Origin: a virus
IMG/VR virus record: IMGVR_UViG_3300028588_000016
Location: 32,001-96,000 of that record
Length of the DNA: 64,000 bases
Strand: one strand, 5' to 3'
Shown here: piece by piece, positions 21,188 through 43,600 of the stretch
Layout: each line of letters starts with the position of its first letter
How positions within the stretch are numbered: position 1 is the first letter of the stretch
Position numbers and translations under genes: made by a program
The notes under the pieces: model-generated
Databases searched by the model: none
Seen by the model: only the letters and a program-made list of their open reading frames with translations
Told to the model about the DNA's origin: nothing

Positions 21188-21228
21188 AAAAGCCCATATG
21201 ATTAAGTTCATATGGGCTTTTATTTTTT
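21188..21228. terminator. Bidirectional terminator between the two convergent arms
   Basis: Perfect 14-bp stem AAAAGCCCATATGA/TCATATGGGCTTTT with A and T tracts. Confidence 0.85.
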
Positions 21229-24200: not shown

Positions 24201-25600
24201 ATTTTCTTTTCATCTGTAGCATTAGGTTCTAAGTTAGTATATTCACCTTTCTTGATCATACTATCTAAAGTACCTTTTCTTGAATTTGTAAATGTATAAA
24301 CAAAGTTAACTGAGTTCTCTAGGTATTCTCTAATAGCATCTAACTTATCAGTTGCAGACTCTGGTAAGTGAACTCGTTTACGGTCAATATGATCGTAATA
24401 CCAATCTTTCCCTTCCTCGTCTTGCTTAACTCTAGTCTTAAGGAAAGAGCTTACTTGTTCGTCTAAGTTATCATAACCTGTACTCATATCGAACATTTCT
24501 TTGAACTCTTTAGCAATACTACCAGACTTCTTAAACTTATAAAGCTTAGAAGTGTCTACAGGTAAAACATGATTAACTCTTTCGATTATATTTTTCTTGT
24601 CACCGTACAAGATTTGTTTTAAAGCGACAGCAGGTTCAGTTTCAAGATCACCAATCTCCATGTTATCGGTATCTGGATCTTTTAAGTAGATAGGATAAAT
24701 GAACATCTCTGCAACCGGAATACCTTTAGACATCATCAGTTGTTGATAAAATGCTAATTGATATTCAGCTTTTAAAGTCTTAGCTCTATCCCATTCACTA
24801 ATACGTTTATATGATGTTTTGAAATCTCCTAAGTAAGCATTACCATTGCTGTCAATACCTACTAAATCGATGATACCTACTATCTTTGTAGCGTCATCGT
24901 GGATAACCATTTCAGCAATAAATTGCATTTTAGGATCACCCGATCTATCAATCATTTCCTTTTTAGCGTCTTCAAGATACTTCACGTATTTAACCATTAA
25001 CTCTAAGTCTAAAGGTTTATCGTGCTTATCAAGTAGTTGTTGAGGATCAGTAATACCATCATTGAAATACATTTGAGCAATACCGTGTAAATCAGTACCC
25101 ATTTTACCAAGTGTTTTCCAACCTGCAATGATATCGTTTACTTGCTCTAATGCCATATTACCTAATTCAACATCTGTAAAATCCTTATTAGCAGGATCGT
25201 TACGTAGTTCCTTAGTTATTAAGTTCTTTTGTCTGGCTGTATAAGCTTTAACGTCTAGTTGACTTATTAAAGGTTTTGCTGTGGCTTTAGTACTAGTTTT
25301 TAAATTATTGATAACAGTAGTTACACCTGTAAATCCTTTACCTGTATTACGAATATTCTCAACTACATCACCGTTAGGAGTTACTCTTGAGATTATATCT
25401 TTATTTTCTTGTTTGATAGCTTTCAATTTAGCCATCGTTTCAGCATATGGATCTAAATCCTTACTAAAGTTAACATCTGATATTTGTGTTGCAGCTTGTA
25501 CTCTATTGTAGTTCTTAGATAAAAAATCATCCAGCTCTTGTTGGGAGCCGAATGATTTAGTTATGCCGTTAAGTTCTATTGTTATATCACAATTTAACAT
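21227..25600 (-). CDS. Giant virion/ejection protein with PD-(D/E)xK (Cas4/RecB-like) nuclease domain
   Basis: GTDLH...AEMVI...GIIDLV...DFKT...YQLAFY at about aa 160-300; 1457 aa. Confidence 0.75.
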   Translation of the reverse strand: MLNCDITIELNGITKSFGSQQELDDFLSKNYNRVQAATQISDVNFSKDLDPYAETMAKLKAIKQENKDIISRVTPNGDVVENIRNTGKGFTGVTTVINNLKTSTKATAKPLISQLDVKAYTARQKNLITKELRNDPANKDFTDVELGNMALEQVNDIIAGWKTLGKMGTDLHGIAQMYFNDGITDPQQLLDKHDKPLDLELMVKYVKYLEDAKKEMIDRSGDPKMQFIAEMVIHDDATKIVGIIDLVGIDSNGNAYLGDFKTSYKRISEWDRAKTLKAEYQLAFYQQLMMSKGIPVAEMFIYPIYLKDPDTDNMEIGDLETEPAVALKQILYGDKKNIIERVNHVLPVDTSKLYKFKKSGSIAKEFKEMFDMSTGYDNLDEQVSSFLKTRVKQDEEGKDWYYDHIDRKRVHLPESATDKLDAIREYLENSVNFVYTFTNSRKGTLDSMIKKGEYTNLEPNATDEKKILLRTAFSRYMDGTWEIQDVPELTGEGVLVFKDKYSGVLEFVATTNLNLKEVKKLTKGTTLLGKFYGDSYLKQEAMFTPLAATEPNFIGLKILNFLNNNYQTVNAAGNSIGLIRVMNPGHDMGMVALDSDSLLANYKELMKKTGNTYNLDKVKKSSFENLLFSQVVHILKDESVDRDELSMIADIKDGLAKESRAEKLRKLKDIQRMWQKNKNVDINNIDYNSPSGMAYSLLNATIIGLQDMNIRPEDDINNVALNRSKMGSTPTELQSASSAINASLRPIKVAMQAMSDNYVKFNAAARKKFAEYYKYKNVSMLAGDHLSAFDNLYVRDADGKINKDFMLKDPYKANSQLDPKEREFVKFLLTTFNNYLRPNKDENETKASGEYFQVPLMRANSVSRSHNKSFLDAVQDKWKNAMNFHHIFEEEQTKNKKASEDMLSFHNTFNFNGNPEARQRLIDEKPLSDFDTNLELILGQLVFTGIRQQVYDEVLPLIHAVRVTSRLISKGFVNKNLVNIDDFIRDYIKVAVFDEKILEEAHEKVAPYVGLAKGLVTTFQLGLSPLNLVKETLQGQINNAIKLMADQYGKGTASMANYRKALNYVISDAPDFFNNVTMIEELNHLYGVANMDRHQLAEKMVQSKQGFTQWHSRWMLWASGAPDYLNRMSLFVAQMMEDGTFDAHSMVDGVLVYDWKKDKRFADYAAGRKSSPNYNKQRALYLAVLAEHNKDSSMLNGVQLQEGDALPRAYTTQEQQSLKMFSDYVHGPFDHENKIMIHHTLLGSLFAQFRTWLTAKKQQYTMAGDKYQVGSWEHAKDLDGSLLYLRYDDKGIAEYTTEVTDVPYMAWKGRFMEGLYQSIVRTYSEFKKSDRSIEDLFNFLKQDETIKGNFKMMSYDLMMFALISLMLKGLIDWGELKKDSPMSATVLNAAINSTSDLNPWANIKAAVDPKSLAATVSTITKTTEDVFGLLTGDSSFKTVIRNAGIGRTITDIAGQAK

Positions 25601-28600
25601 TTAATTTGCAAGTTTTTATTATTCATTAATAGTTTCTTTAATTCTTGTACATCCTGACTCGGCGCTTTATAGAAGTTTATAGTATAGTCTCCAAAGTTTT
25701 CTACTACCTCGAACTCTAAATCTGGAAATAGTTCTTTCAACTTAGGTACATTTCTGTACATTTCGTTTTCTGTACCTTCCATCTGAATTCCTAGTCTAGA
25801 TGCAAACTTAGTAACTGAGTCAACAGCATCCTTTTCTATTTCGGTACTACCTACACTATGTATAGATTGAACTTGACTAGGAGATATCACTCTATAACTA
25901 TCTCCGACTTTCTCAATATTACCTTTAAGGTAAACAAGTTTTGTATTATCGGCTATAGTTGAAACTGGTTGATATATAAACTTTTCTAAAGTAGGTAAGA
26001 ATAAAGCGGGTTCTCCATCTTCAGCTTTAACAAAATAAGATTTAGCAGCTTCATTATTGAATGCTTCAGATTTCGTTTTTAACCAATGTTTCGATGCTTC
26101 TGCTTCACTAAAACCTAAAGATAATAGTTTCGTATACAAACTAGATTTTCTACCGTCAGCGGCTCTTAAATAAGTTCCGTCTTCTAGCGTTTCTTGTTTG
26201 ATATTGTTTACTTCTACAGCAGGTATGAACTCTCCAGTTAACATTGATTTACCAAAATGATTCTGAATCTCTTCAAAAGACATATTCATAATTTCATAGT
26301 TACCTAGTTCAAAGAATGACCTGTTGTTAATGCCGAATAGTTCAGCTAAGAAATTCTTAATAGAGTTATAAACATCGCCTAAGAAGCTTCTATTATCAGA
26401 CTCCCACTTCTTAGTTAACTCATTACCTATTCTACCGTTAAACATTTCTCCTAAGGTTGTAACGAATACTTCCTCAGCTTGTCTGTTTTGATCTAGATTT
26501 GGATAATGTTTAGCTATATTGTCGAATTGCGGATGTGCTGCAAATTTACTAATAATAGTTTGATATAAAGAATTATTGCTTGACTTTAATCCCTGCATAA
26601 TTATGTGACCTAATTCGTGTATAGGTTCAGCTAATGATGCTTTATCTGTATTTAAGAATACTTGATTACCGTATACAAAAGCTCTTTGCTCAGAATATAA
26701 TAAGGTAGCATTAGGATCTAAATCGAATTGTTCAGCTATCTCTTCTGTACTTAATAAGTTCATTTTGATACCGTACATTCCTTCTAATTTAGAAGCTAAT
26801 CCAGTTAGTAATTGCTTACTGGCTTTTGCAGATTTAACAAATGATTTCTTATCAGTAGATGTAAAGTCTTTAGAAAAAGGAGCTTCGTTATCTACTTGAG
26901 TAGTAGCTACACTATTACCTTTAACAGCCATAGTTGTATGTTTGTCTACTAAACTTTTAGCACCGTTCTTAGCCCTACCTTTAAATGAGAAACCAATATT
27001 TGTAATGCTATCTAATCCTGTTTTCTGTCCTTTCTTCTTGTAGATCTCTACAGTACTTCTAGTGATCTTCTGATCTGCTCTGTTTAAGAAACTCTTCTCT
27101 AAAACTATTGAGTTAGTATTCTTAACTACTACTATTCCTTCATAATAACGATTGCCATTATCAGTAGAATACTGACGAGTCATCATATCTCCAACTTGAA
27201 GATCGTTCCAAAGTTCATCAGTATCAGATTTAGCAATAGCATCTTTAGATAAGTAATTATAAGGATTATAATCAGATCTTAAGTTGTTAGTCTTAGTGTG
27301 TTTAAGTACGTAACGCTTAGTTGATTTAACACCTTTATCAGGTGGTGTAAATGATATTTTTTCATCAGGATATACATATTGAGTAGCTACTTCATAATTA
27401 AGTAAATTCTTAGATTTCTTTAATGCTTCTGCAGCTGCTAATGTTTCAAACGTTTGATAAGATTTAGACTTAATAAAATCCTCTCTAGCGTTATCAATTT
27501 TTCTAGTTATCTCTTTATTCGCTCTTAATCCTAATTCTTCGTTATCGACTAGATTATGACCAATACCGAGGATTTTCTCAACAGGTACAGTTTCAATTTT
27601 ATACCACGCAGACGGCATAGAATGCGAGATCTTACCACCAGGAAGCATTGTAACTTTAGGCTTATTAGATTTAATCTGATGTCCTACAACAGGTCTTCCC
27701 GTTACTTCATCGAAATCTAAGACTACAGCAGTACCATAAGGAAATGCAGGATCATTAGACTCAATCATAACAATATCTCCTCTATTTACAGAAGCTACTT
27801 TCTTAAACTTATAGTCTACGTTCTCGTCACCTGTAAATAACTCTGTATGATATAGTTCTTTAACTGATGTGAATGAGTTTGTTTTTACAAAGTCACCATC
27901 TTCATTAAAGATTTCTTGTTTATTCTGGAATAATAGGTAAGTAAGATTAGCTGGAACAGTCTCCCCTTTTTTAAGGATATCTCTTAACTTCATCTTATTC
28001 TCGAAGTTAATAGTTGCTGTTTTCTTAATATTAGCAAAATTAGCAATTACGGCTTTATTGTTGTTATCTCCAAACTCAGATTTGAAATTCTTAACAACGT
28101 TACCGTGATTCTCTTCTAATATTAACATTCCGTTAATCAGACGTTTCTCTACTATACGTATTTTGTTATCCTTGTCAAGTGTTTCTAACGCATCTCCTAA
28201 AGGACGTAATACGGTAAAGTATTCGTATTCCTTTTTAGCTTTAGGATCTTCATTGTATTTAACAACTTGTACAAGATCATTAGGACCGGCATCTCTAAAG
28301 AATAATAGTGATTCTCTTCTAGGTAAGAAGAATGATTTACCTTCATTGTGTGCAAATACGTTGAATTTAGCGCCATCTTTATAAAGTATTTCTTTAGTAA
28401 ATTGTTTTTCATCTACATTCTTACCTTTAAAATAACTAGCAACATTCTTCTTATTCTCCATAATAGAACGTTTAACAGCAGCAGGAATCTGTTTAGCTGT
28501 ATAACGAATATTACCGTAGAACTTACGATATCCTTGAATGTTTTCTTTAGATACGTGACGAGGTCCACTTTGAGTAGCTACTACGAAGAATGTTTGTCCA

Positions 28601-30351
28601 ACTTGTTTATTGTAATAGTTGTAAATAATAGGAGAATATCCTGTTTTCTCTAAGTCTTGTACCCAATTACCAGAAGCATCTTTCTTCATCATGTTATAAC
28701 GTATGATGTCATTCTGACCAAGTCTGAATAAAGAGGCATCGTTACCTGCTAAGGTTTCACTAGGGCCTAATGTTTTAACAGGTTCGCCGTAATTGTTAAT
28801 ATAACGTGCATAGTTAGAACCTCCTAATGTGGCATTCTTACTAGTCGCTTCAAAGAAGTTACGCCATATTTTATTGTTAGCTGTCATTACTTGCTCTGGT
28901 GTGAATGCAGGTAATTCTGTAACTTGTTGATATATTGCTGGATCAATTACACGAGCAAAGTATGCACCGTTAAATCGTATCTCTTCTATGTTACCGTTCT
29001 CTAAATCCTTAAATCTATATATTAGTTTATCAATTATTTGATTGTTACTATCATAAATTTCTAAACGATAACCTCCATCTTCTTCTGCAACTTTTTGTGC
29101 AAAGTAAGTATTATCGTCTCCTTTAAACTTAATATCAACAGTATCTAAAATTTGAAGATTATCCCAATCACGTTTAATATTACTTAAAGCTCTTTCTGCT
29201 TCCTCAACACTTTGTTCTTCACCTTCAACTCCACTTATTCTTGCAATATAATCTTGTAAATCAGAATAGCTTTTAGGGTTGAATTGAGCTATTCTAGGTT
29301 CAGGAGTCTTTTCTACAGCACTTACATTAGGAGTAATTAGTTGAAGATTATCGTATTGATTAAGTACCTCACGTAACGTAGAACCTATTTTAACTTTTAA
29401 ACCCAATAAGTCTTTAACCCATTTGAAGATTCGAGTTAGAACACTTCCTGTATTACGCTCTCCTTGAAAAGGTATTTGATTAAGCTTATTAGCAAATGCT
29501 TTATCTGTAAGTGCATAAGCAAAGATTTCTTTCATACCGTAAGCAGCTATTTCTTCGTTTGTACCAAATTTAGCTTTCTTCTTACCCTCAATTATACTAT
29601 TGTAAACATCGGTAAAATGCTTTGAATCAGCATCTTCTGCATGCTTACGTGCATGAATTGAATCGAAAATAGGCATCAATGCATCTAGAAAACCTACTCT
29701 ATCTTTACGTGCCCATTCATCAAGTTTACGATTAACTTTATAATGTACCATTTCATGAGCTAATACTTTAGCCACTTCGTGATCATCATTAAGCACATCT
29801 AAATCTCCATCATTCTTACCTGTGTAGACTTTAATAGTATCAACAGAACCTGGTGCTCCCATTATAAAAACACCAAAAGCCGAGTCAATATCATCATCAG
29901 GATTACCTGTTGGATTATATTTCTCAGCTTGAAAATGAATTGCAGGAAGATTTAAATCCTCTCCCTCTAACAAGTTTTTCATTAAACCTGCGTACGGGTG
30001 AGTAGCCACTTCTAAATGGGCTTTAAGATCTGATAATTTAACATTACCGTCATGCTTCTTTTTATTAGTCTCTGCTTGTATTCCTACAGGCGAGTTAGTA
30101 AGTGCAGGTGGTAATTGAGTAATCTCAATAGGTTGAAATATGTTTTGAGGTTTAGTTAACTCCGCTACAGTTTCGTATAACTGGTGTGCCGGATCACTCA
30201 ATGCGTTAGTCATAACGTCTTTAATCTGGCGTTTTAAGTCTTTGTTTAACTCTTCTGGAGTTAGATTTTCGTCAACCAAGAGTTTAGGAACCGTAAATGT
30301 CTTACGGTTCCCATCTTGGTAGTACGCTATCTCGTAGTCGCAATTTTTCAT
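25594..30351 (-). CDS. Giant virion/ejection protein with two zincin metallopeptidase domains
   Basis: AHEMVH...KEIFAYALT (29743-29760) and IHELGH...EEVFV (26605-26619); 1585 aa. Confidence 0.75.
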   Translation of the reverse strand: MKNCDYEIAYYQDGNRKTFTVPKLLVDENLTPEELNKDLKRQIKDVMTNALSDPAHQLYETVAELTKPQNIFQPIEITQLPPALTNSPVGIQAETNKKKHDGNVKLSDLKAHLEVATHPYAGLMKNLLEGEDLNLPAIHFQAEKYNPTGNPDDDIDSAFGVFIMGAPGSVDTIKVYTGKNDGDLDVLNDDHEVAKVLAHEMVHYKVNRKLDEWARKDRVGFLDALMPIFDSIHARKHAEDADSKHFTDVYNSIIEGKKKAKFGTNEEIAAYGMKEIFAYALTDKAFANKLNQIPFQGERNTGSVLTRIFKWVKDLLGLKVKIGSTLREVLNQYDNLQLITPNVSAVEKTPEPRIAQFNPKSYSDLQDYIARISGVEGEEQSVEEAERALSNIKRDWDNLQILDTVDIKFKGDDNTYFAQKVAEEDGGYRLEIYDSNNQIIDKLIYRFKDLENGNIEEIRFNGAYFARVIDPAIYQQVTELPAFTPEQVMTANNKIWRNFFEATSKNATLGGSNYARYINNYGEPVKTLGPSETLAGNDASLFRLGQNDIIRYNMMKKDASGNWVQDLEKTGYSPIIYNYYNKQVGQTFFVVATQSGPRHVSKENIQGYRKFYGNIRYTAKQIPAAVKRSIMENKKNVASYFKGKNVDEKQFTKEILYKDGAKFNVFAHNEGKSFFLPRRESLLFFRDAGPNDLVQVVKYNEDPKAKKEYEYFTVLRPLGDALETLDKDNKIRIVEKRLINGMLILEENHGNVVKNFKSEFGDNNNKAVIANFANIKKTATINFENKMKLRDILKKGETVPANLTYLLFQNKQEIFNEDGDFVKTNSFTSVKELYHTELFTGDENVDYKFKKVASVNRGDIVMIESNDPAFPYGTAVVLDFDEVTGRPVVGHQIKSNKPKVTMLPGGKISHSMPSAWYKIETVPVEKILGIGHNLVDNEELGLRANKEITRKIDNAREDFIKSKSYQTFETLAAAEALKKSKNLLNYEVATQYVYPDEKISFTPPDKGVKSTKRYVLKHTKTNNLRSDYNPYNYLSKDAIAKSDTDELWNDLQVGDMMTRQYSTDNGNRYYEGIVVVKNTNSIVLEKSFLNRADQKITRSTVEIYKKKGQKTGLDSITNIGFSFKGRAKNGAKSLVDKHTTMAVKGNSVATTQVDNEAPFSKDFTSTDKKSFVKSAKASKQLLTGLASKLEGMYGIKMNLLSTEEIAEQFDLDPNATLLYSEQRAFVYGNQVFLNTDKASLAEPIHELGHIIMQGLKSSNNSLYQTIISKFAAHPQFDNIAKHYPNLDQNRQAEEVFVTTLGEMFNGRIGNELTKKWESDNRSFLGDVYNSIKNFLAELFGINNRSFFELGNYEIMNMSFEEIQNHFGKSMLTGEFIPAVEVNNIKQETLEDGTYLRAADGRKSSLYTKLLSLGFSEAEASKHWLKTKSEAFNNEAAKSYFVKAEDGEPALFLPTLEKFIYQPVSTIADNTKLVYLKGNIEKVGDSYRVISPSQVQSIHSVGSTEIEKDAVDSVTKFASRLGIQMEGTENEMYRNVPKLKELFPDLEFEVVENFGDYTINFYKAPSQDVQELKKLLMNNKNLQIKC

Positions 30352-30354
30352 TTA

Positions 30355-33300
30355 TTAGCAATCAAGTTGTTTTATTTCTATGTGTTCTAAGAAATTGTTA
30401 AGTCGATTCATTTTAATCTTGTGCTTGTTATCTATGCTTAGATTTCTAAGATTAGATCCTCCATTTGAGATATTAATAACTTTCTCACCGTATACTTGCG
30501 GTTCTAGAGGAGTATAAGTCTCACCGTCTAAATAGAATAATACTGTGTCAGATGTTTCAGTTTCAGCATTGAAAACCTTCTTACCCACAAACTTAGGGTT
30601 AATTCCGTTCTCTTTGTACTTCGGTAAAACATCAACGATTTGTACTAAACCTTTAGCGGCTAAATCTTCACTTTGATAATGTTGCTGATCTGTAAGGATT
30701 ACATCACTCCAATCTAATTCAGACTGGAACTTGTTAAACTGTGTCATTACAGAGTCGTTGTTAAAATTCTCGCTAACTGCATCAAATAGTCTATTAAACG
30801 ATTGACCGTTAGATTTGTTCTTGTTAACAATTAAGTTATACAAATATAACAAATCTAATAGAGATTTACCTCCATAACTGTAATTTTTTAATGTAGCGAA
30901 AGAACCTACTAATGTATCCATTAGAATCTTTTCATCTTCTTTAAGATTACCTGTCATGTTAATAGGCAACTTATAGAACGTGTAGTTTTTACCTAACACT
31001 CTATCTTTTCTACTATCAACTGTTAATTGCTGTAGTAAAGTGTTACCTTTTAAGAACTCATTAGGAGTTTCAATAGTATTATTGTCAGCGTCTTTTATGA
31101 TACCTGCTTTTAAATCAGGAATTACAGTTCTCTCAAACCAATCTACAAAGTTCTCACGTCCTTCAATAGATCCTAATTCAATAGTTTTATCAGCAGTTAA
31201 TGCGTCTTCATCAGTTGTATAATCACCTTTCTTAAGAGTAAATCTTAAATCAGATGCACCCAAGAAGTTAGCAATCATAACATCATCAACAAATCTAGAT
31301 AACATACCGTGTTGATTTCTATTTAAAGGTAATCCGTTAAACGCATCTTTAAAGTCACTCTCGATAGCTTTAATAGTTCTACTTTTAACTGAGAATTTAG
31401 ATTTAGTGTAATCAGTAATAACCGCTAAAGAGAACATCTTAAAGAAGTGATCGTTCTTAGCAAGTACTCCAAGTACGTTAATACCTGTGCCGTTGTAAGA
31501 CTTGATTATGTTTTCTCTAAAGTTTTGATCATTAATGAACTTATAGAAATCGTCTATATCGTTAAGTGATTCAGCATATCTAGGTTCTTTTAAATCCTCG
31601 TCTTCTACTTCGATTACCTTATCTTCCATAAAGTTTGTTATACCTCGGAAGTATCTGTAAAGATCAGCATCAGTTACTTTAATAGATTGATTAATACTTA
31701 AAAGTTTACCTAACATATCGAAGTCTTCACGAGAGTCTAGTAACTCTTTAAGTACTTCAAATACTTCATTATCAATACGCGCAGGTATTAATTTACGAGT
31801 AGCATCGTTATAACGATTATAAGCAACAGCTGCATTAATAGCTTTATCTTTCTTAGTAGCTCTAGGTGCATAATCTTGATCCATTTCACTACCTTCAATG
31901 AAGGCTTCGTCATTCATACCCATATCTTGCTCCATTTCAAAAGAAGTTTCTGATTCTTGGAAAGCTTCTGACGCTTCTTGACTCAATAAAGCAAGTTGTT
32001 CTTGTTGCATTAATAACTCTTCATCAGTTAGATTAGGAGTATTTACTACAGGTTCTACACTATAGTCACCCTCAATCTTTAAAGGGTTTTTAAAGTTAAT
32101 CTTACGATCAGTCTTCAAAAAAGCTTCAAATAGTACAAAAGGATTTTTAAACCTTTTATCTAAATAAGCTCTATTCATAGGCTTATCTTTCTTGTCTTTG
32201 AACTGAGAATATACTTGTTCCATTATCTTAGTATCAGCTTTTATCTGATCAGCAATGGCACTCATTGTAGTGAATGTAAAGTAATCTTTAGGATTTAAAG
32301 TTCCTTTCTCTAACTGTTTAACAGCAGATTTAAGACTTACTTTATGTCCTGTATATGTATTACGTGTTGCAATCTTTAAAACTGCTTCTGCTTCTGGAGA
32401 AGTCATTAACACCGCTAAAGACTCCATACTATAACCCATTTGCAAACCTGCTAAATAAACAGATGCTGTTTCAGGCCCCGCATTGATACGTGCTAAGATT
32501 AACTCTTTCGCATTATCCGTTGCAGCTGATAAGATAGCAGATAAGTCTAAGGCGATATCACCTCTGAACTTCATTTCTTCTATTGTCCTTCTACGAACAT
32601 TCTCTAGATCTTGTTCAGCTTCCGGTACTTGGAAGTACTGCATAGTTCTAGCATAGTAGTCCATGAAATCATCTATCTTATTAGTATAGTTAAGTCCTGC
32701 TACACCTACAGTAACTCTAGGATTAGAGCGTTTTATAAATCCGCCTACACTAGTAAAGTCATAAACAGTACGTTTACTGTAAAGGTCTAAACCTTTAAGA
32801 TTAACATGTGACTGTGTTAAAGCAGAGTGAGCTTTTAAATGTGTAGCCGCAATACCAATTACATCTTTACCAACCATGTTATTGTTAGTAGCTTTTGCAA
32901 TCGTTACCGGATTGTAAGGACTCATTCTTTTAAAGTCTTCACCCTTAACCGATTTTTTAGCAGCCTCATCTGCGGCACCCATTGTCATCGGAGACATCAT
33001 GTGATTGATGTTTCTAATATCGTTATTTGATTGAGTAATAGAAGAAGCTAATACGTTCAATATAGCCTGTAAAGGATAGTTATCGTTTATAGGTTTCAAG
33101 AAGTAAGTATTAATTTCATCTAATGCACGTTGAGTATCTTCATCAGATGCTCCTACGATTGCAATGTTTTTAGCTGTTTCCAACTTCTTCATTGTATCTA
33201 CGTAGTTATCAAATAACTCTGCTTTATCTTCGTAATTAAGTATATTAGCTACATCTACATCTGATAACACTACATCAGGATTTTCAGCAGCAGATACTCT

Positions 33301-36300: not shown

Positions 36301-39300
36301 ACTAGAATTAGCCGGTAATATCTTAGCTATTTCTGCATCGTTATACCAAACACCTACACGGTTAACAAACTCTTTAACTGCACTCCAAGATCTGTCTGAA
36401 GGTACATAAGACCTCAAATGATCAGGTAAATCTAGAACTCCTGTATAAGCTCCTTCTTTATAGGAAACAGAATCTTTTCCACCAAGTGCTGTCCATAAAT
36501 CCCAGATACTGTTTACAGTAATTGCTTTAGGATCTAGTACTTGACCAGTAATTAAATCTTTATAGTAGAAGTTATATTCGTTATTACTTGCCCAATTAGG
36601 AGAAGGTTCTATTTTATGTACCGCTAAATAATCTCCTGTAATAGGATCTTTAAAAGCAACATCATCAAACAGTGTATTTAAATCTATAACCTCTCCGTTG
36701 AAATCTCTAGAGATATCTAATTTAACAGGTAAGTTACCAACTGTGAAAGGTAAAGAATGACCTTTCTTTAATAGATTAAAGTAACTATATTTAGAATCAG
36801 AGTTCTCGTTATTTAAACGTTCGTTCACTGTCGTGTGAGCAGCATGTTTTAATAAACCAGCACCGTTAAGTCTTTCATCAATTGTACCACCAATAGACTT
36901 TTGAGTAAGACCTGCACTCTGATCTAACAAAGATTCGTTCTGTAATTCAGTAGTCAAAGGAGATTGTAAAGTTGAACCATCACCTGATTCTACAGTAGAT
37001 TGTACACCATATAGTGCAAATACTCCTGCTTCCGTATCTTTAATATGTGATACCCTTGAAAAGAAAGGTAATCCGTTAATTTGATTTAAATTGTAAGGAT
37101 GATAAGTAGCTTGATGAATTACCATACGCTTAAACATGGCAATAGATCTAGCTGATAACATTCTAGTTTCAAAAGATGAGTCAGATTCTCCCTCTTCTCT
37201 AAATAATTTAGCTGGGTGACCTAGTGGTGAACCAACTGTCATATTTTGGAAGTCTTGAGTAACCATGTTATATTCCCAAAGATATTGTTCTAATATCGGG
37301 TTCATTTCAAAGTTACCGTTTAAATCACCTTTGTAAAGCTTCAATCTACCGTATTCATTATCAACAAATCCAGTAGTATCCCAAGTATCCATTACTCGTT
37401 TCATCAAAGAGCTTTCTGTCAAATCTTTACCTACTAAGTAGTCAAGATTGAAGTCAATACTTTCTAAGCTAGTTAAGAAATCTTTTCTAATTCTATCTAA
37501 GAAAGCTTCTCTATTGGAACCAAAGTTACGCATCATACCAGATAAAGATCTGTTTATAACAGGTTTCTTAGTCTTACCGTCTACTTCAAATGTTAAGGTT
37601 TTCATAACATCGATAGAGGCTGCGGCAAATGCTTGATTTAAAGTCTTCTCATTTAAGTCGCTTAGAATATTATTTAAAATATCTACGTCCATGTTGTCCA
37701 TAGCAGTACTTGTTAAACTAGACTCATTCAACTTAAATAACTTATTGTAGATTGCTAGTTCTTGTTTTAAAACGTCACCAATATAAACTTCTGGAATTTG
37801 ATTAATATCAACTTGTCCTTCTGTTTTAACATTAGCTAAAGCAGTTTTTAAGAGGGTTGAATTCTCAAGATATGTTCCATGCAATACACCTGCTTGAAAT
37901 AATTTATTAAAGTCAGAACGAACTGTTTTCCATAAATTAGTGTAGTAATCTAATTGAGAATCAGCAAATGCTTCACGGAAATGTTCAGCTTCGAAGTCTC
38001 TATATCTTCTAGTTTCACCTGCTAAAGTTAACTCTGTATTAGCGTTAATCTTCATAGCAGCGTGTCTACCTTTATCCGCAAAGTTTGTTACTTGAAACTT
38101 AGGATTTCTTAAAGTTTCTTCGGGGTTAACCTTTTGTTCTAAGTAATCATTAAGTATATCAAAACTAACACGCTCTACTTCTGTAAGTTTAGAAGAAGGT
38201 ATTACATTACCGTTAACATCTTTAATTGTTAAACGGATTTCTACATCTTGTACTAAGTCTGGATTTCTTAGTATAATATTGTTTCTCAAAGGCATTATGT
38301 TATTACCCGGAGCTTGATGTTTATTTTCAGCTTCAAGTAACATTCTAACTGTGTCTCTAAAACTATTGATATTATTACGCATTGAGTAAGTAGGCAAAGC
38401 ACTACCTTCTGCGTTAATAGTAGTAGCTTTAATGTTACTACCATAATACTCATTAGCAACGTCAGCGTAATTTCTTAACGCTTGGAAAGAGTGATTACCT
38501 AATTCTAAGTTAAAGTAACCTGCACCTTTATTCCAAATCTTAGTAACTGGGAATTTACTAGTTAAACCAGGAACGTCATTTAAAGCACTTTCTATTTCCT
38601 TTTGTGACATATTCTTTAAATCTCGCAAGTCGTTTACACGTACACCCGAGAAGAAAGCTAAGTTACCGCTAATAGTTAATAAGTCTTTAATGTGAGATTT
38701 ACCAAAATTATCGTGCATAATCTTAGGTATATCATAGTTCATAGAGTTTAAAGGTTCCTCTGTAATAGTAGCAGCTACTCTTAATATGTTAGCGTAATCA
38801 GAGTATTGAGCAGCTATCTCTGGAGAGTTCATATCGTAAATATCAGTAGGTGTTTCGATAGTATTAAAATCGAAATCGTTACCTTTAGCGTCAAAGAAAA
38901 CTCCTGTAAGTGGATCGTAACTCACAACCTGATTACCTATTTTAAAGTCTACATAACCACTGGATACTTTAACACCTAAAGATTTTTCCCATCTTTCTAG
39001 CAATTTATCAGTAGCTACTAAAGTCTTAGAACCTAACTGTTTAAGTCTATGAAAGTTTTTATCATTAAGCTTGTTTTGTAAAGTAGTTTGTTTAAACTCT
39101 TTACTTCCAAACTCTTGGTTAACCTCTACATAATTCATAACAATTGTCTTGTTAAGTGTAGAAGATATCACTTCTTGAACGTTAATATCGTATTTACCAG
39201 GAAAGTGACGTCTGTATACTTCATATAAAGAACGTTCTTTAATGTTCTTCATATTAGTAACTACGTTCTTTAGTTGTGGTATTTTCGCAAGTCTATTGAA

Positions 39301-40632
39301 AGATGATTGATCTGCATAAACTCTTTGAAACAAAGTTAGCAAAGTAGTCATATCAAAGTTATTCATCTTATTTGCACCAGAGTAGTGATCCTCTATTGCT
39401 TTAACAATAGCTTCTTTAATACTGTTAGACATATCTGTTCTATCAATATTAGTTTTAATCTTAGCTATTGCATAGTGTACTGCATCCGGATTTAAATAGC
39501 TATTAGTACGAACTCCATCTAAATTTAATTTAGGGGAAGTCTGTATAAAAGTATTGAAGATTTCAGTAGTTTCTTGAGCAGCACTTACTATTTCACTAGC
39601 AGAGTGATCTGTACGAATTCTACCTTTCTCAGCTGGTATGTATTTCTGTGTTTCTTGTGACTCACTGAAATTACTAGTAGTTCCACCTTTAACTTTAATA
39701 AAACCAGAACCATAGATACTCATTAATTCATCAAAATGCTTTAAAGTCACAAATGCGTTATACATTTGAGATTGTCTAGGATCAGAACTTGCATAAGTCC
39801 AACGGATTAAATCTTGAACAAAAACTCCTTTACCACCGTTCATAGCTTGAAAACTACGTTCGATTTGTTTTAGTCTTTCTTCTAAGTCCGGTCTTGTAAC
39901 TCCGTTTACGTAATAAGTGTCATTAGGGAATAGGGTTTTGAATAATCTTTCTTTATAGGCTTTAACGTTTTTATCAACGTCCTTTTCGAACTTAACCGGA
40001 ATAGGAGTCTTTTGTCTTAAGTCTATAAATGTAGCAGCAAATAAATCATTCTGAATGGCTCTTGTCATTCTACTTCTAGCTACATCAGCAGACTTGAAGT
40101 AATTATGTTTTAAAGAGTTAGGACTCTCAATTACTGTAGCAGATAAATTAAGAGGTTCAGCAATAATGTTACTTGTAGTATGATCTTCACTATAAAGTCT
40201 TTTTAGAATATCCGATACATTTTCAAGGTCACCTTCGTGTTCGTCTTGTTTATCAGATTCTGCATTTGTAGATACTTCTACTCCTGCATTATCCAAGGCA
40301 GATTTCTGCCAAGCATCTACAATCTTATTGACTGTATTCTCAGCATCTTCTAAATCGATATTAGCGTTATGATCATCTAAGGCGTTGGTTTCCTCAAGTA
40401 CATTAGCTACTAAGTGCATGGCTGCACCTACGTCACCTAGAATGCCCACTAATCTTACTGGATCAGTAGCCAAGGTGTTTAGGTTTGATCCGTAATAGCG
40501 CTCTAGGTAATTAGGCATTACGTCAGCAACAGCCGCAGCAAAATCTTTACCTTCTATTAAGGAATCAAAAATGACCTTATGGATTCCCATAAGGTCATTA
40601 AATTTGTCAAATGAGCAAGTGATGTTTATCAT
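30355..40632 (-). CDS. Virion-packaged single-chain DNA-dependent RNA polymerase (crAss-like, phi14:2 gp66 type)
   Basis: RIPGQ...GEDFDIDK catalytic motif (33436-33450), SAQKVG, ATDNAK; 3425 aa. Confidence 0.88.
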   Translation of the reverse strand: MINITCSFDKFNDLMGIHKVIFDSLIEGKDFAAAVADVMPNYLERYYGSNLNTLATDPVRLVGILGDVGAAMHLVANVLEETNALDDHNANIDLEDAENTVNKIVDAWQKSALDNAGVEVSTNAESDKQDEHEGDLENVSDILKRLYSEDHTTSNIIAEPLNLSATVIESPNSLKHNYFKSADVARSRMTRAIQNDLFAATFIDLRQKTPIPVKFEKDVDKNVKAYKERLFKTLFPNDTYYVNGVTRPDLEERLKQIERSFQAMNGGKGVFVQDLIRWTYASSDPRQSQMYNAFVTLKHFDELMSIYGSGFIKVKGGTTSNFSESQETQKYIPAEKGRIRTDHSASEIVSAAQETTEIFNTFIQTSPKLNLDGVRTNSYLNPDAVHYAIAKIKTNIDRTDMSNSIKEAIVKAIEDHYSGANKMNNFDMTTLLTLFQRVYADQSSFNRLAKIPQLKNVVTNMKNIKERSLYEVYRRHFPGKYDINVQEVISSTLNKTIVMNYVEVNQEFGSKEFKQTTLQNKLNDKNFHRLKQLGSKTLVATDKLLERWEKSLGVKVSSGYVDFKIGNQVVSYDPLTGVFFDAKGNDFDFNTIETPTDIYDMNSPEIAAQYSDYANILRVAATITEEPLNSMNYDIPKIMHDNFGKSHIKDLLTISGNLAFFSGVRVNDLRDLKNMSQKEIESALNDVPGLTSKFPVTKIWNKGAGYFNLELGNHSFQALRNYADVANEYYGSNIKATTINAEGSALPTYSMRNNINSFRDTVRMLLEAENKHQAPGNNIMPLRNNIILRNPDLVQDVEIRLTIKDVNGNVIPSSKLTEVERVSFDILNDYLEQKVNPEETLRNPKFQVTNFADKGRHAAMKINANTELTLAGETRRYRDFEAEHFREAFADSQLDYYTNLWKTVRSDFNKLFQAGVLHGTYLENSTLLKTALANVKTEGQVDINQIPEVYIGDVLKQELAIYNKLFKLNESSLTSTAMDNMDVDILNNILSDLNEKTLNQAFAAASIDVMKTLTFEVDGKTKKPVINRSLSGMMRNFGSNREAFLDRIRKDFLTSLESIDFNLDYLVGKDLTESSLMKRVMDTWDTTGFVDNEYGRLKLYKGDLNGNFEMNPILEQYLWEYNMVTQDFQNMTVGSPLGHPAKLFREEGESDSSFETRMLSARSIAMFKRMVIHQATYHPYNLNQINGLPFFSRVSHIKDTEAGVFALYGVQSTVESGDGSTLQSPLTTELQNESLLDQSAGLTQKSIGGTIDERLNGAGLLKHAAHTTVNERLNNENSDSKYSYFNLLKKGHSLPFTVGNLPVKLDISRDFNGEVIDLNTLFDDVAFKDPITGDYLAVHKIEPSPNWASNNEYNFYYKDLITGQVLDPKAITVNSIWDLWTALGGKDSVSYKEGAYTGVLDLPDHLRSYVPSDRSWSAVKEFVNRVGVWYNDAEIAKILPANSSKGQIRAFKEAYNEYVPKPSSPTKNYNPEKDELSQRSVIQPLKYSFIGEYTFSSAQKVGIKNENPTDVLRRGNEAPLNSSFVSNMHKGIQLNAEHDGTEVTEATQTTSTLPFNGDTPEYANKAFKAIYIYIDNSLSTLIPDIDSLFNGTDVSNAAKMRVYNLLANEIIRGFDGKEITSTAGAIIASVRKELDNYKQELKQLVATTPTSQQYKEALVKLEDLSDAGLKLSFSDANIYGAFATTVANFFTKNGVRRKMPGDAIVISPYADFIGIRDVYDPESGETLQMTEPQYLEWKRKIIAQGGDPVTLEATEIAPGSKDLVEIFDTVVDEQGNRIKLNSPKAYYEFKANPGTFVKDNHASRDLKPTLHKWKIQGNAGFTSYFDLPLAKLSFINDEVVAAHKAVKAFDSKGTFDDSGLSPYELQQGKSKRLQLETAVENLNRLLQEQNNLISSIDAEMDFQKYSVTANVDDSGYSISYSDNDFEFSQAQKNLLKNELTQTMQEIYNKKLAPMPITSINIMDALENYQIVIDPSDPSETWSAIEDYELFLRDFPEASVYEWYNQRKPKVRVDELTTVPGEIMMSPVFGKKYGITANDNLATINEKFFLDRLNYKTLPSTRQHDFFVKAKDGEHLYVVLRGSDNFKSLNLKKAPLDSVDIRQEDGSVKSYKLDQNDKPQYEIGYKELFHANVDGKLHNYVVVNNIDELNALKIITKGNNSPYDTIVPNFQAGLNVAELAVQFMSLNKYKDSDKFMNSLLKIKEVLNTKRRLSEAKGSIGLLEQESLLSMYDQAWVDKTINSLNLRLQQTDLSNEQRIQATDKLKHVTEYAESLANMTEENPASRDLVLTQAGIFKSAEIDKNVRKWTNSLKKSQNEVENALAEMSNFLYTNILERNEKLAKEIYNSFDAHLNVSASRIPGQAKQSYMGQKIVGFVHSEHNVGFVSPFHMWITGEDFDIDKVYVTMMSTDKSGKLIGWSDKFRYDSKKHLMKSLELPIPDKNVRVRVSAAENPDVVLSDVDVANILNYEDKAELFDNYVDTMKKLETAKNIAIVGASDEDTQRALDEINTYFLKPINDNYPLQAILNVLASSITQSNNDIRNINHMMSPMTMGAADEAAKKSVKGEDFKRMSPYNPVTIAKATNNNMVGKDVIGIAATHLKAHSALTQSHVNLKGLDLYSKRTVYDFTSVGGFIKRSNPRVTVGVAGLNYTNKIDDFMDYYARTMQYFQVPEAEQDLENVRRRTIEEMKFRGDIALDLSAILSAATDNAKELILARINAGPETASVYLAGLQMGYSMESLAVLMTSPEAEAVLKIATRNTYTGHKVSLKSAVKQLEKGTLNPKDYFTFTTMSAIADQIKADTKIMEQVYSQFKDKKDKPMNRAYLDKRFKNPFVLFEAFLKTDRKINFKNPLKIEGDYSVEPVVNTPNLTDEELLMQQEQLALLSQEASEAFQESETSFEMEQDMGMNDEAFIEGSEMDQDYAPRATKKDKAINAAVAYNRYNDATRKLIPARIDNEVFEVLKELLDSREDFDMLGKLLSINQSIKVTDADLYRYFRGITNFMEDKVIEVEDEDLKEPRYAESLNDIDDFYKFINDQNFRENIIKSYNGTGINVLGVLAKNDHFFKMFSLAVITDYTKSKFSVKSRTIKAIESDFKDAFNGLPLNRNQHGMLSRFVDDVMIANFLGASDLRFTLKKGDYTTDEDALTADKTIELGSIEGRENFVDWFERTVIPDLKAGIIKDADNNTIETPNEFLKGNTLLQQLTVDSRKDRVLGKNYTFYKLPINMTGNLKEDEKILMDTLVGSFATLKNYSYGGKSLLDLLYLYNLIVNKNKSNGQSFNRLFDAVSENFNNDSVMTQFNKFQSELDWSDVILTDQQHYQSEDLAAKGLVQIVDVLPKYKENGINPKFVGKKVFNAETETSDTVLFYLDGETYTPLEPQVYGEKVINISNGGSNLRNLSIDNKHKIKMNRLNNFLEHIEIKQLDC

Positions 40633-40635
40633 TCA

Positions 40636-43600
40636 TTAATTACATTTAGTTTCTTTGATTAAATTATCATAAGCTTTACTAAGTTCACTTAACTCTGTTT
40701 CAAAACCATTAGCTTTCAAATAAGAACCTACTAAGTAGTAAGACTTACCTGCTTTAAGCTTCATGTCTACGTTATATGTTTTAACGTACTCTGGCTGATT
40801 CATCATGTTAGTAAATGCATCATAGTGTTCTTGTAACCAAGTACCTGCGATAGCTTTACCTACAATATCTAAATCAGTTGGTAATGATCCTAAGTAGTTT
40901 ACTGGAGTAAATTGCTTATTTTCATACGCAAAGGTAGCAATAATTTCGCCATTATCTGCATTTGTAACACTAAATTCTCTAACTTTCTCAGTCGATCCTG
41001 GCTTATTAGTAACAGTTTGCTCTACTGTTACGTTAGTTTCAGGAACACCGATTTCCTGTAATTGACCGTTGGCATGTTGACTAGCTGCACTATTTAAAGG
41101 CAACAACTCTACACCATGTTCAGTATTAGGCATAACTATGACTTCTATACCGTTCACTGTCATTACGTCGTCAGATAACTCAGCTACTTTCTCTGCTACT
41201 ATTGCCATCGTTTCAGCAACTGCACTAGCTGCATGTGTTTCGGCATTTCCACCTTTTAAAGCGTTATTGATATCGTTAAGATTATCAGCTTCTAAACTGT
41301 GAGTTTCAGTTACCGTAGCTAAGGCAGCAGTTGATATTTTACTAAGAACATCAGTGTCTGGAATTCGTTCATCTATTGCATCTATTACTTTTTGCTCTAC
41401 CTCTTTATATTGTTCAACTTTTACTCCTTTATCTTCTTCAACAATATCAGTAGGTCTGAAATCAATAGAATCTGGATTAAAGTAAATAGTTGGAGTTTGA
41501 ATTGAAACATCAACTTTAAAGTCATCATCTATGTTACCTGTTGGTACGACGAAAGGTGCATCACTCACATATCTATTATCTGCAGTAGCAGTCCTTATGA
41601 CAGGATTAATGTGTATTCCATCAGGAAACTTATAAGAGATAATATCTTCTAAACCGGTTACAAACTTATCATATTCAATACTATCAGCTTCTTTTGACTT
41701 AAAAGCTGATGGGAATAATCCGTCTACAAACTGATCAACTCCGGCAGTATTAGTAAAAGTACCGCCTGCAACCGTTAGTCTTATTGCAGATACAAAATTG
41801 TACAAAGCTGAATTAGGTATGTTTAGAGATAATGCTTTACCGTCTACATCTTTAAAAGTCTTTAACGAATTATCCTTTTCAAACTTGTTAATGTTAGTAA
41901 GTAAATCCGAAGCTATAAAGTGTTCAACTGCTTTAGTTTTAGCATCTGGTGAATCTTTAAATAACTTATTTACAAAGTCGTCAATCTTAGACTTGTTAGC
42001 TTCTAAATAAGCGTTAATATTATTTCCGCCTGTAGCGTAGATATCGTTAAAAGTCTTACCTGTTAAAATGGGTAATACGTTCTTAAGTAGAGAGTCAACA
42101 TCAGATATTAATTTCTCTAGTCTCTTAGGACCGTATAAATCAGGTTTAAGTCTTAGGTTAGCTCTGAATTCCTCAGGTTTACCATTCTCTTTATAATACT
42201 CAGCTCTACGTTTAAAGTTAACCAAAGCACCGATCATAGTAGCGGCAGCAAAGTTATTACTGTATGCTCTACGTTGAGCTTTTAAGTCTATGTTATTCTC
42301 AGTCATTGAACGAGAAATAGATACGTTCTTAGCTAACCAATCTTTAAATGGAACACCTTTCTTATTAAGAACAACCATACGTATATTTCCTGGATCAGGA
42401 TCTATAGCTTCACCTTTAAGTTTACGTTCAACTTGTGAATTTAATTGTCTTCTATATCTATCTGCAAGTTCGTTTTTAGGTATTGTTTTATCTAAAGATA
42501 CGAATACTACAGCTTTACCTATTAAAGAAGAACTCTCTGTATTTACTTCATTGTTCGGTCCTACACCACCTCTATTGAAGTTAGCAAACAATTGTTGTGC
42601 TACTTCATCATCTTGGTTGATGATCTTAGAGTTCATTATGATATAAGGTTCAGAATGATTTAAATGAGCATGTTCTTGTTTAAACTCTTTATAACTCTTC
42701 TCTGCACTAGGTCTTAAGTATAAATTTGAAGTAGGTTTAAGTACTTCCTCTATAGTCAAGTCTGGTTTCAAATAGAAGTAACTTCTACCATTAACAGCCG
42801 TACGAGTATGATTATCTCTGATATTACCTAAGGTAGCCATTACTCCTTTTCTACTAGCAACGTTTGGATTGTTAGCATTAGGGAAAGCACTAATAGTAAA
42901 TACTACTATTGGAGAAGCTCCTTCAACTGGTTTAATCAATGGAATTTCCATTGTTAAGTAACTTATTAAACCTCCACCTTGAGGTGTATTAGTGCTGTTT
43001 AATTCAAAAGAAGCATCCACAGTGTGATCATATTCTTTTGTTTCTAACATTAAAGCAGCTTTATCAAAGTCTAATTTAGATAGAATCTTATCGTGTACAG
43101 CATAGTTAGCAGATAAAAAGTTTGCTAGTTTACCTGCGTTTTCTCCATCTTGAACCTTTTGAGAATAAGCCATAAGACCTGTTTTCAATCGTTTCATTTG
43201 ATCTCTAGCTAGTGTAATTCTAGGATCATTTATAGACATTCCCTCTTCTAATTCTGTATCGTTAATTAACTCAAAGAATCCAGCTAAGTCTTTACCTGAT
43301 ATAATAGGATTAGTTTGGGTATCTTTTATTGTATTTTTCTTATCTACAGAAACACCTAATCTTTCATGGAAAGTATAAGTCAAAGGACGAGTTTCACCTT
43401 GATCAACCGGTATGGATTCACCTGCAATATTAACTGGTAAATCCGTAGGCTCAACTTCATTAGATGCTTGTTTTAAAACAACTGAATAACCTGCTTTCGC
43501 AAACTCTTCATCTTGATTTAAATCAGACATTCCACTAGTTGTACTAGGTTTAGGAGTAACTCTAGTTTCAGTAGGACTTAATCCTAAATCTTCAAGGTTA

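Follow-up and report, generated by a model that had tools for sequence, protein, structure and literature searches.

How is a cargo of giant enzymes packed by a phage and delivered to its host? The question was raised by the structure of crAss001, whose cargo of ~5 MDa includes an RNA polymerase (RNAP), and it concerns the crassviruses, the most abundant phages of the human gut. It takes a particular form in the stretch of viral DNA analysed here, 64,000 nucleotides long (the window; positions 32,001 to 96,000 of IMG/VR record IMGVR_UViG_3300028588_000016), in which six head-to-tail open reading frames (ORFs) on the minus strand, at positions 21227-56343, encode 11,693 residues with a total of six cysteines (Cys). 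All six lie at most six residues from the three junctions that join four of the encoded proteins, designated A (helicase-like), B (the virion RNA polymerase, vRNAP), C (zincin-like) and D (nuclease-like). By analogy with the cargo of crAss001, A to D are probably packed in the capsid and injected by the window phage. Why, then, should Cys be kept at the facing ends of these proteins and nowhere else in the block?

At the rate of 1.11% Cys found in the other 202 ORFs of the genome, ~130 would be expected in the 11,693-residue block against the six present, and six Cys placed randomly in the 9416 residues of A to D would fall one within six residues of every facing end (six in all) with a probability of ~5e-17. 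The trinucleotides TGT and TGC occur across the block 6 times in frame as opposed to 153 and 690 times in the two other frames, so that the purge of Cys acts at the protein level. At the A/B junction the DNA reads TGT AAT TAA TGA ATG ... TGC and at the B/C junction TGC TAA TAA ATG AAA AAT TGC; at the C/D junction, A-TGT-TAA overlaps the start of D. Since the stops at the three junctions are TAA TGA, TAA TAA and, at the third, TAA with a change of frame, no single ORF extends over the modules. The original prediction for this DNA had proposed, from its letters, a linked chain of about 1 MDa with open ends, the first protein being without an N-terminal Cys and the last without a C-terminal one. 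Translation reproduced every coordinate given for the four giant ORFs (9416 residues) and their six Cys codons, the computed mass of A to D is 1,059 kDa, and the open ends hold in the window and across its relatives. The four ORFs of the depleted block had been recognised correctly, but two Cys-free ORFs upstream, of 627 and 1650 residues, had been missed.

No close relative was found by megablast against phage records or by a viral contig scan with B, and a word-index search with C matched only itself; because close relatives were absent from the phage collections searched, distant ones were used for comparison. The core of B, used as query in an exhaustive HMMER (phmmer) search, retrieved 254 homologues, 132 of them at least 1800 residues long (63 full-length, 69 short). 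A Cys was present in the first eight residues, mostly at position 3-5, of 124 of the 132, and in the last four residues of 62 of the 63 full-length proteins; windows of the same size at other offsets held a Cys in 0-4 of the 132, and the internal Cys frequency of these homologues (0.244%) predicts ~2% by chance per window. Homologues of A carry a Cys in the last 15 residues (53/54) and none in the first 12 (0/54), those of D carry one at position 3-9 (14/15) and none in the last 20 (0/15), and every protein in the C slot of the eight relatives having that slot (L001, L002 and L005-L010, the L numbers denoting compared loci) has a Cys at position 3-5. In the alignment of B (A1; 16 sequences, ~22% mean identity) Cys6 and Cys3425 are invariant, as are the catalytic DxDxD aspartates D2395, D2397 and D2399. 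Cys2948 is likewise invariant in the alignment of A (A2), together with the Walker A residues G1541, G1543 and K1544, and Cys4 in that of D (A3), where D245 and K261 are invariant and D259 nearly so. The terminal Cys are conserved as strongly as catalytic residues, and the count of Cys positions in orthologous blocks, which had been put forward as a check of the proposed chain, is strongly positive.

The exceptions that were followed up proved to be artefacts: for two B genes called at MAPE..., a start further upstream in the same frame gives MNVKC or MKC, and behind the sole A homologue without Cys the next ORF, of 183 residues, bears the usual ...LTHDC end. At this locus of a metagenomic relative (L013:18790-19383) the last 183 residues of A, terminal Cys included, form a separate ORF in another frame, 41 nucleotides past the stop, and the pieces sum exactly to a full-length homologue of 3112 residues; the frameshift may be real or an assembly error.

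Individual blocks follow the same pattern. In MT835470, an uncultured gut phage at ~27% identity, A has a Cys at position -5, B and C each have Cys3 and a C-terminal Cys, and D has Cys5. In MT835492, also from an uncultured gut phage at ~27% identity and readable only with TAG as glutamine, A is split in two (by blastp) and the new junction sets a Cys at -5 against one at +5. Eight more loci found through homologues of B or A (L005-L010, L014, L015) all take the form A[...C]-[C...B...C]-([C...C...C]-)[C...D], the middle protein C being absent from L014 and L015. Stop codons are reassigned in the late or virion block of several of these phages (TAG to glutamine in L002 and L007-L010, TGA to tryptophan in L014 and L015); the code of the window phage is the standard one. 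Under each of these three genetic codes the Cys rule is kept. Every crAss-like phage checked keeps Cys at the facing ends, a rule which, read from sequence, suggests an undescribed end-to-end tether.

The phages differ in their number of links and thereby provide natural experiments, in which there are as many Cys pairs as protein junctions. There is one pair in the fused Intestiviridae forms (crAss002 and Carjivirus, the genus of the original crAssphage, of which one genome was compared), two in phi14:2, crAss001, DAC15, L014 and L015, three in the window phage, L001 and L005-L010, and four in L002, whose divided A adds a junction with a pair of its own. In phi14:2, the phage with the solved RNAP structure, the four Cys among 5398 residues all lie at the two junctions, g067 ending in Cys, g066 having Cys3 and a Cys at -2, and g065 having Cys3. 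In the fused pairs (crAss002 gp32/gp33 and Carjivirus QOR56528/QOR56529) the first protein has a Cys at -2, and the second (gp33, QOR56529) begins MSC at its evident true start and has no Cys near the C-terminus. Starts of the giant RNAP genes are frequently miscalled. The annotated RNAP starts of these two phages lie too far upstream, by 32 codons in gp33 (L017:11996) and by 21 codons, at a non-canonical ATT, in QOR56529 (L018:12122), and in the two phages reading TGA as tryptophan (L014 and L015:10001) the RNAP start was called ~20 codons too far downstream; in each case an MxxC start fits the family.

Protein C is unrelated among phages, being zincin-like, a PIF1 helicase with NADAR, an ART-PolyVal protein or a protein of 353-393 residues, and it always has both terminal Cys. 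A negative control is found in L001 and L015, where an intron with a LAGLIDADG ORF interrupts B inside its catalytic DxDxD motif (L001:23340-24400 and L015:15764-16765): the ORF ends made in this way carry no Cys. The flanks of the interruption give sub-threshold group I intron matches (Rfam RF00028, expectation values (E) of 0.002 and 0.009), and the insert ORF matches Pfam LAGLIDADG_2. In the interrupted vRNAP genes, exon 1 ends ...WLQGSDY, the LAGLIDADG homing endonuclease ORF follows and exon 2 starts ...DFD; this layout occurs in many crAss-like phages (40-50 of the 69 short RNAP homologues), for which gene callers give truncated proteins of ~1850-2450 residues. IAS virus was tried as a polyprotein test and has its RNAP in two parts (837 and 2159 residues) without a clean Cys pair, but runs of N and a possible frameshift led us to set it aside as unreliable.

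Whether the rule belongs to the protein or to the DNA can be read from crAss001 and DAC15, in which the gene of the first partner runs against the other two, on the opposite strand and convergent with them, and its product still ends in Cys, the RNAP beginning MSKRC or MSKTC. Because the partner genes are on opposite strands, the Cys rule is a protein feature and not a DNA motif of the junction. The alternative would be that the Cys codons are a by-product, without function in the protein, of a nucleotide signal at coupled stop-start junctions, such as an ATGT-TAA overlap or a re-initiation motif; at the C/D junction TGT does overlap the ATG (A-TGT-TAA), and TTGTTAATGAGTTGT-like junctions are common to several relatives. 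Yet crAss001 gp47 and DAC15 gp078 end in Cys even though kilobases separate their genes from those of the presumed partners, which are encoded on the other strand, and crAss002 and Carjivirus keep their pair over spacers of 67 to 170 nucleotides by the annotated starts, and longer ones to the inferred MSC starts. Codons and spacing vary as well: both TGT and TGC are used at the terminal Cys, the distance of the Cys from the end and the junction spacing differ, and the Cys of A lies up to 16 residues before the stop. We rejected a nucleotide motif, which the non-collinear genomes contradict, as vanishingly improbable. The same genomes amend the original prediction, in which terminal Cys were to track gene adjacency along a chain of linked neighbours: conservation of the terminal Cys, tracking of protein junctions and ends and the open-chain topology all stand, whereas gene order is not what is tracked, the partner gene in crAss001 and DAC15 being on the opposite strand.

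To the comparative evidence can be added a co-fold of the A/B junction, for which residues 2790-2949 of A were folded with residues 1-160 of B, from the window's own sequences and without alignments. The interaction prediction score from aligned errors (ipSAE) was 0.63, as against 0.00 for the best of three controls; in calibration, 51 of 78 solved complexes and 2 of 108 mismatched pairs attained the mark applied to this score. At least 78% of contacts agreed between runs, the predicted local distance difference test score (pLDDT) of the partner was at least 56, and Cys2948 of A and Cys6 of B both belong to the confident interface. The model supports, but does not show, binding of the C-terminus of A to the N-terminus of B. 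Of the terminal peptide pairs whose modelling was originally envisaged, that of one junction has been modelled; it passed the controls, and both of its Cys fall in the interface.

Topology and co-fold both bear on the idea that the terminal Cys do not pair with the neighbour at all but attach each protein to the portal, the capsid interior or DNA, mark it for processing or packaging, or make rings of B and C through intramolecular N-to-C links. Ring closure is formally possible, as B and C each have one Cys at both ends; moreover, the disulfides seen in crAss001 join other virion proteins, and a bond between cargo proteins is so far something that we infer. Against these schemes, the C-terminal and N-terminal Cys are equal in number in the two-, three-, four- and five-protein versions, an N-terminal Cys is always missing from the first protein and a C-terminal one from the last, and splitting A adds one Cys of each kind. 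Furthermore, the fused proteins crAss002 gp33 and Carjivirus QOR56529 retain the N-terminal Cys only, with none near the C-terminus, and in the co-fold a single interface contains both Cys2948 (A) and Cys6 (B). We regard an absence of pairing between neighbours as quite improbable.

Taking the sequence comparison and the modelled interface together, we reasoned that neighbouring cargo proteins are probably joined by a covalent Cys-Cys tether, most likely a disulfide. The C-terminal tail of each cargo protein would dock on the N-terminal segment of the next, and the single Cys at each facing end would then form the covalent link, making A-B-C-D a 'polyprotein' assembled after translation. Linking could set a 1:1:1:1 stoichiometry in the capsid, and a packaging or portal signal of one member could bring the others along; the linked set would exit the narrow tail as one thread, and the reducing cytoplasm of the host would then release the individual enzymes. 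The remaining Cys may have been purged, as in N4-like ejection proteins, so that wrong disulfides cannot form. The bond and its chemistry (disulfide or metal), its timing (after lysis in the original prediction), its function, the ordered threading and the release by reduction are all proposals. In its broadest form, the proposal is that Crassvirales make a reversible, redox-gated 'polyprotein', a linear chain clipped by terminal Cys, of up to five links and more than 1 MDa, which would be packaged and threaded as one and unclipped in the host cytoplasm, with its middle acting as a plug-in slot for any effector having Cys at both ends; this wider scheme we hold to be an open possibility, a little short of probable.

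Several observations weigh against a disulfide-linked chain. Assembly would take place in a reducing cytoplasm and many of the hosts are strict anaerobes, which makes the timing and route of disulfide formation problematic. No thioredoxin or glutaredoxin was found in the 183-kb genome; a search of it for Erv1/Alr gave no match either, but the control of that search also matched nowhere. The Cys of A is not at the very end in every clade, being 9-16 residues short of it in some. The co-fold covers one junction at moderate pLDDT and without alignments, and its calibration also let through 7 of 44 neighbouring gene pairs that had been drawn blindly. Finally, cryo-electron microscopy of crAss001 did not resolve gp47, gp49 or gp50 (PMC10172136). 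In Carjivirus, two putative thioredoxin genes, one annotated as truncated, are encoded on the opposite strand, with a few genes between them and the cargo block (L018:25806-27073).

The oxidation problem would be avoided if the termini paired through a metal ion, some other thiol chemistry or a non-covalent docking interface, because the cytoplasm of an anaerobe, although reducing, could allow a metal bridge or a non-covalent dock to form ahead of packaging; the same comparative evidence fits such pairing, and the predicted docking would hold. However, each of the termini compared has a single Cys, near which no His, Asp or further Cys is conserved, and this rules out the usual metal site of three or four ligands, and a purely structural role leaves unexplained why Cys is invariant at the ends and purged elsewhere. 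On balance we consider pairing by another chemistry rather unlikely. Three further candidates were rejected: a zinc site, for lack of further ligands; a split intein or trans-splicing, since there is no Hint domain and no Pfam match at the termini, and Cys 1-6 residues from the ends leave no room for intein halves; and a lipobox, since no signal peptide precedes the Cys.

The Cys-linked chain can be set against systems already described. The proteins g067-g066-g065 of phi14:2 and gp47/gp50/gp49 of crAss001 are the RNAP-associated, virion-packaged cargo of Crassvirales (10.1101/2020.03.07.982082; PMC10172136); those of crAss001 are packaged in the capsid and thought to be extruded partly unfolded, in an exit order proposed to depend on packing and mutual interactions (PMC10172136). 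By analogy, B of the window would be present in the virion and delivered to the host. The window block shares with this cargo the position of giant proteins after tail and cargo genes, the DFDxD two-barrel RNAP motif and the terminal Cys topology, but has four links instead of three, separate HExxH and PD-(D/E)xK proteins and a much larger size, in a 183-kb genome. B matches crAss001 gp50 by blastp (E 4.5e-6) over ~200 residues after the catalytic motif; by hhalign, A2 has no detectable homology to gp47 (probability 1%) and A3 has a weak match to gp49 (probability 54%, E 1.2e-4, 329 columns). Synteny and Cys topology of the block agree with gp47/gp50/gp49. It lies directly after two Cys-poor ORFs resembling the crAss001 cargo proteins C1 and C2, at the end of the virion module, and the order is the same in L001, L002, L005-L009, L013, IAS virus, phi14:2 and crAss001. 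A zincin-like domain has been reported in orthologues of phi14:2 gp65 (10.1101/2020.03.07.982082), which the HExxH motifs of C fit.

In some crAss-like phages the three cargo proteins form a 'single huge polyprotein' (Drobysheva et al., 10.1101/2020.03.07.982082). The fused Intestiviridae have the same functional modules as the window, but theirs are linked by a translated peptide bond, whereas those of the window are separate ORFs with a Cys pair per junction; in the fused forms one junction is left, and it has the only pair. Because the fused modules are covalently continuous, a covalently linked chain is viable for crassvirus cargo. Tail-hub and ring proteins of the crAss001 virion are linked by intermolecular disulfides (PMC10172136), so crassvirus particles do carry protein-protein disulfides, although these join structural tail proteins in a fixed lattice and not the termini of ejected cargo. 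In Schitoviridae, Cys is suppressed in N4 gp50 and in DEV gp71/gp72/gp73, which has been ascribed to passage through the disulfide-forming periplasm (PMC11445570), and the structure of the N4-like vRNAP is reported to differ globally from that of the crAss-type phi14:2 gp66 (PMC13434306). A giant vRNAP and co-ejected proteins nearly free of Cys are common to both; however, the N4-like proteins have no Cys at all, whereas the window keeps one invariant Cys per facing end and so lacks the complete absence of Cys from vRNAP and co-ejected proteins that marks Schitoviridae. The spared terminal Cys are a positive signal and not a mere absence. Removal of Cys from ejection proteins is already known in N4-like phages, and the new element is the survival of exactly one Cys at each facing end.

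In the full-text literature searched, which left most subscription journals outside, we found no mention of the terminal cysteines of crassvirus cargo, and the Cys of the cargo go unmentioned in 10.1101/2020.03.07.982082 and PMC10172136; the original prediction had known of no description of such a mechanism, and none was found there. A conserved Cys 'handshake' would offer a concrete, testable mechanism for stoichiometric co-packaging and ordered ejection and, if true, a new way to build a multi-enzyme chain without translational fusion. It also yields an annotation rule, by which the true starts of the giant genes begin MxxC, correcting those of crAss002, Carjivirus and the window genome, and terminal Cys could help to recognise which neighbouring genes are injected cargo. 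The rule points, too, to the variable effector slot between RNAP and nuclease (helicase/NADAR, ADP-ribosyltransferase, zincin), whose occupants look, from their sequences, like exchangeable injected effectors. The slot holds PIF1 with NADAR in one phage, ART-PolyVal, an ADP-ribosyltransferase-like domain, in another, proteins of 353-393 residues in three and one of 989 residues in one more, with loci at L005:20606-27097, L006:20424-27383, L007:19564-20625 and L010:12326-15295.

Features of the giant-protein block, with coordinates in the window
Feature	Coordinates	Strand	Description
1650-residue ORF, no Cys	51391..56343	-	Upstream of the chain; at the place of crAss001 cargo protein C1 (assigned by position only)
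627-residue ORF, no Cys	49503..51386	-	At the place of crAss001 cargo protein C2
A, 2949 residues, 327 kDa, single Cys	40636..49485	-	First link; superfamily 1 (SF1)-helicase-like P-loop ATPase, residues 1531-1915
Cys2948 of A (TGT)	40642..40644	-	Penultimate, ...ETKCN then TAA TGA
B, 3425 residues, 387 kDa, Cys6 and Cys3425 only	30355..40632	-	crAss-type virion RNA polymerase, GEDFDIDK (D2395, D2397, D2399)
Cys6 of B (TGC)	40615..40617	-	In MINITC
Cys3425 of B (TGC)	30358..30360	-	C-terminal, ...QLDC then TAA TAA
C, 1585 residues, 180 kDa, Cys4 and Cys1585 only	25594..30351	-	Variable middle link; two HExxH (zincin-like) motifs, residues 199 and 1245
Cys4 of C (TGC)	30340..30342	-	In MKNC
Cys1585 of C (TGT)	25597..25599	-	C-terminal, overlapping the ATG of D (A-TGT-TAA)
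D, 1457 residues, 166 kDa, single Cys	21227..25600	-	Last link; PD-(D/E)xK nuclease-like; no Cys near the C-terminus
Cys4 of D (TGT)	25589..25591	-	In MLNC
Terminator-like hairpin	21188..21220	-	AAAGCCCATATGA...TCATATGGGCTTT then T; read from the sequence, directly past the D stop codon; the block ends here

Domain searches gave results of varying strength for the individual proteins. A matches Pfam AAA_30 (E 1.9e-6) and, more weakly and below its cut-off, UvrD_C_2 (E 0.0084). B as a single sequence had no match in Pfam, PHROG or PDB sequence searches. C matched Pfam Peptidase_M48 at E 0.14 only and had no PHROG match, and by blastp its residues 1172-1382 have conserved counterparts in the C proteins of L001 and L002; D matches PHROG 466, an exonuclease (E 8e-6), and its homologues carry Pfam PDDEXK_1. 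The gene caller began B at Met15 (P0002, 3411 residues), which would lose Cys6; the start at 40632 is supported because the closest homologues, beginning MANITCSF, MANINCSF and MANTNCSF, carry the equivalent of Cys6, invariant in A1.

The two ORFs upstream of A have Cys-free homologues by blastp, of 1554 and 1474 residues for the 1650-residue ORF and of 610 and 637 residues for the 627-residue ORF, in L001 and L002, respectively. Equivalents of the 627-residue ORF are Cys-free also in L005-L009, L013, IAS virus, phi14:2 (g068) and crAss001 (gp46), and the 1650-residue ORF had no match in Pfam or PHROG. The record holding the window is a complete virus of 183,312 bp. The ~150 bases at its start (1-150) are repeated at its end (183160-183312) with one mismatch, which fits a complete genome assembled as a circle, and its size is unusually large compared with the ~90-103 kb of the cultured and reference crAss-like genomes that were fetched.

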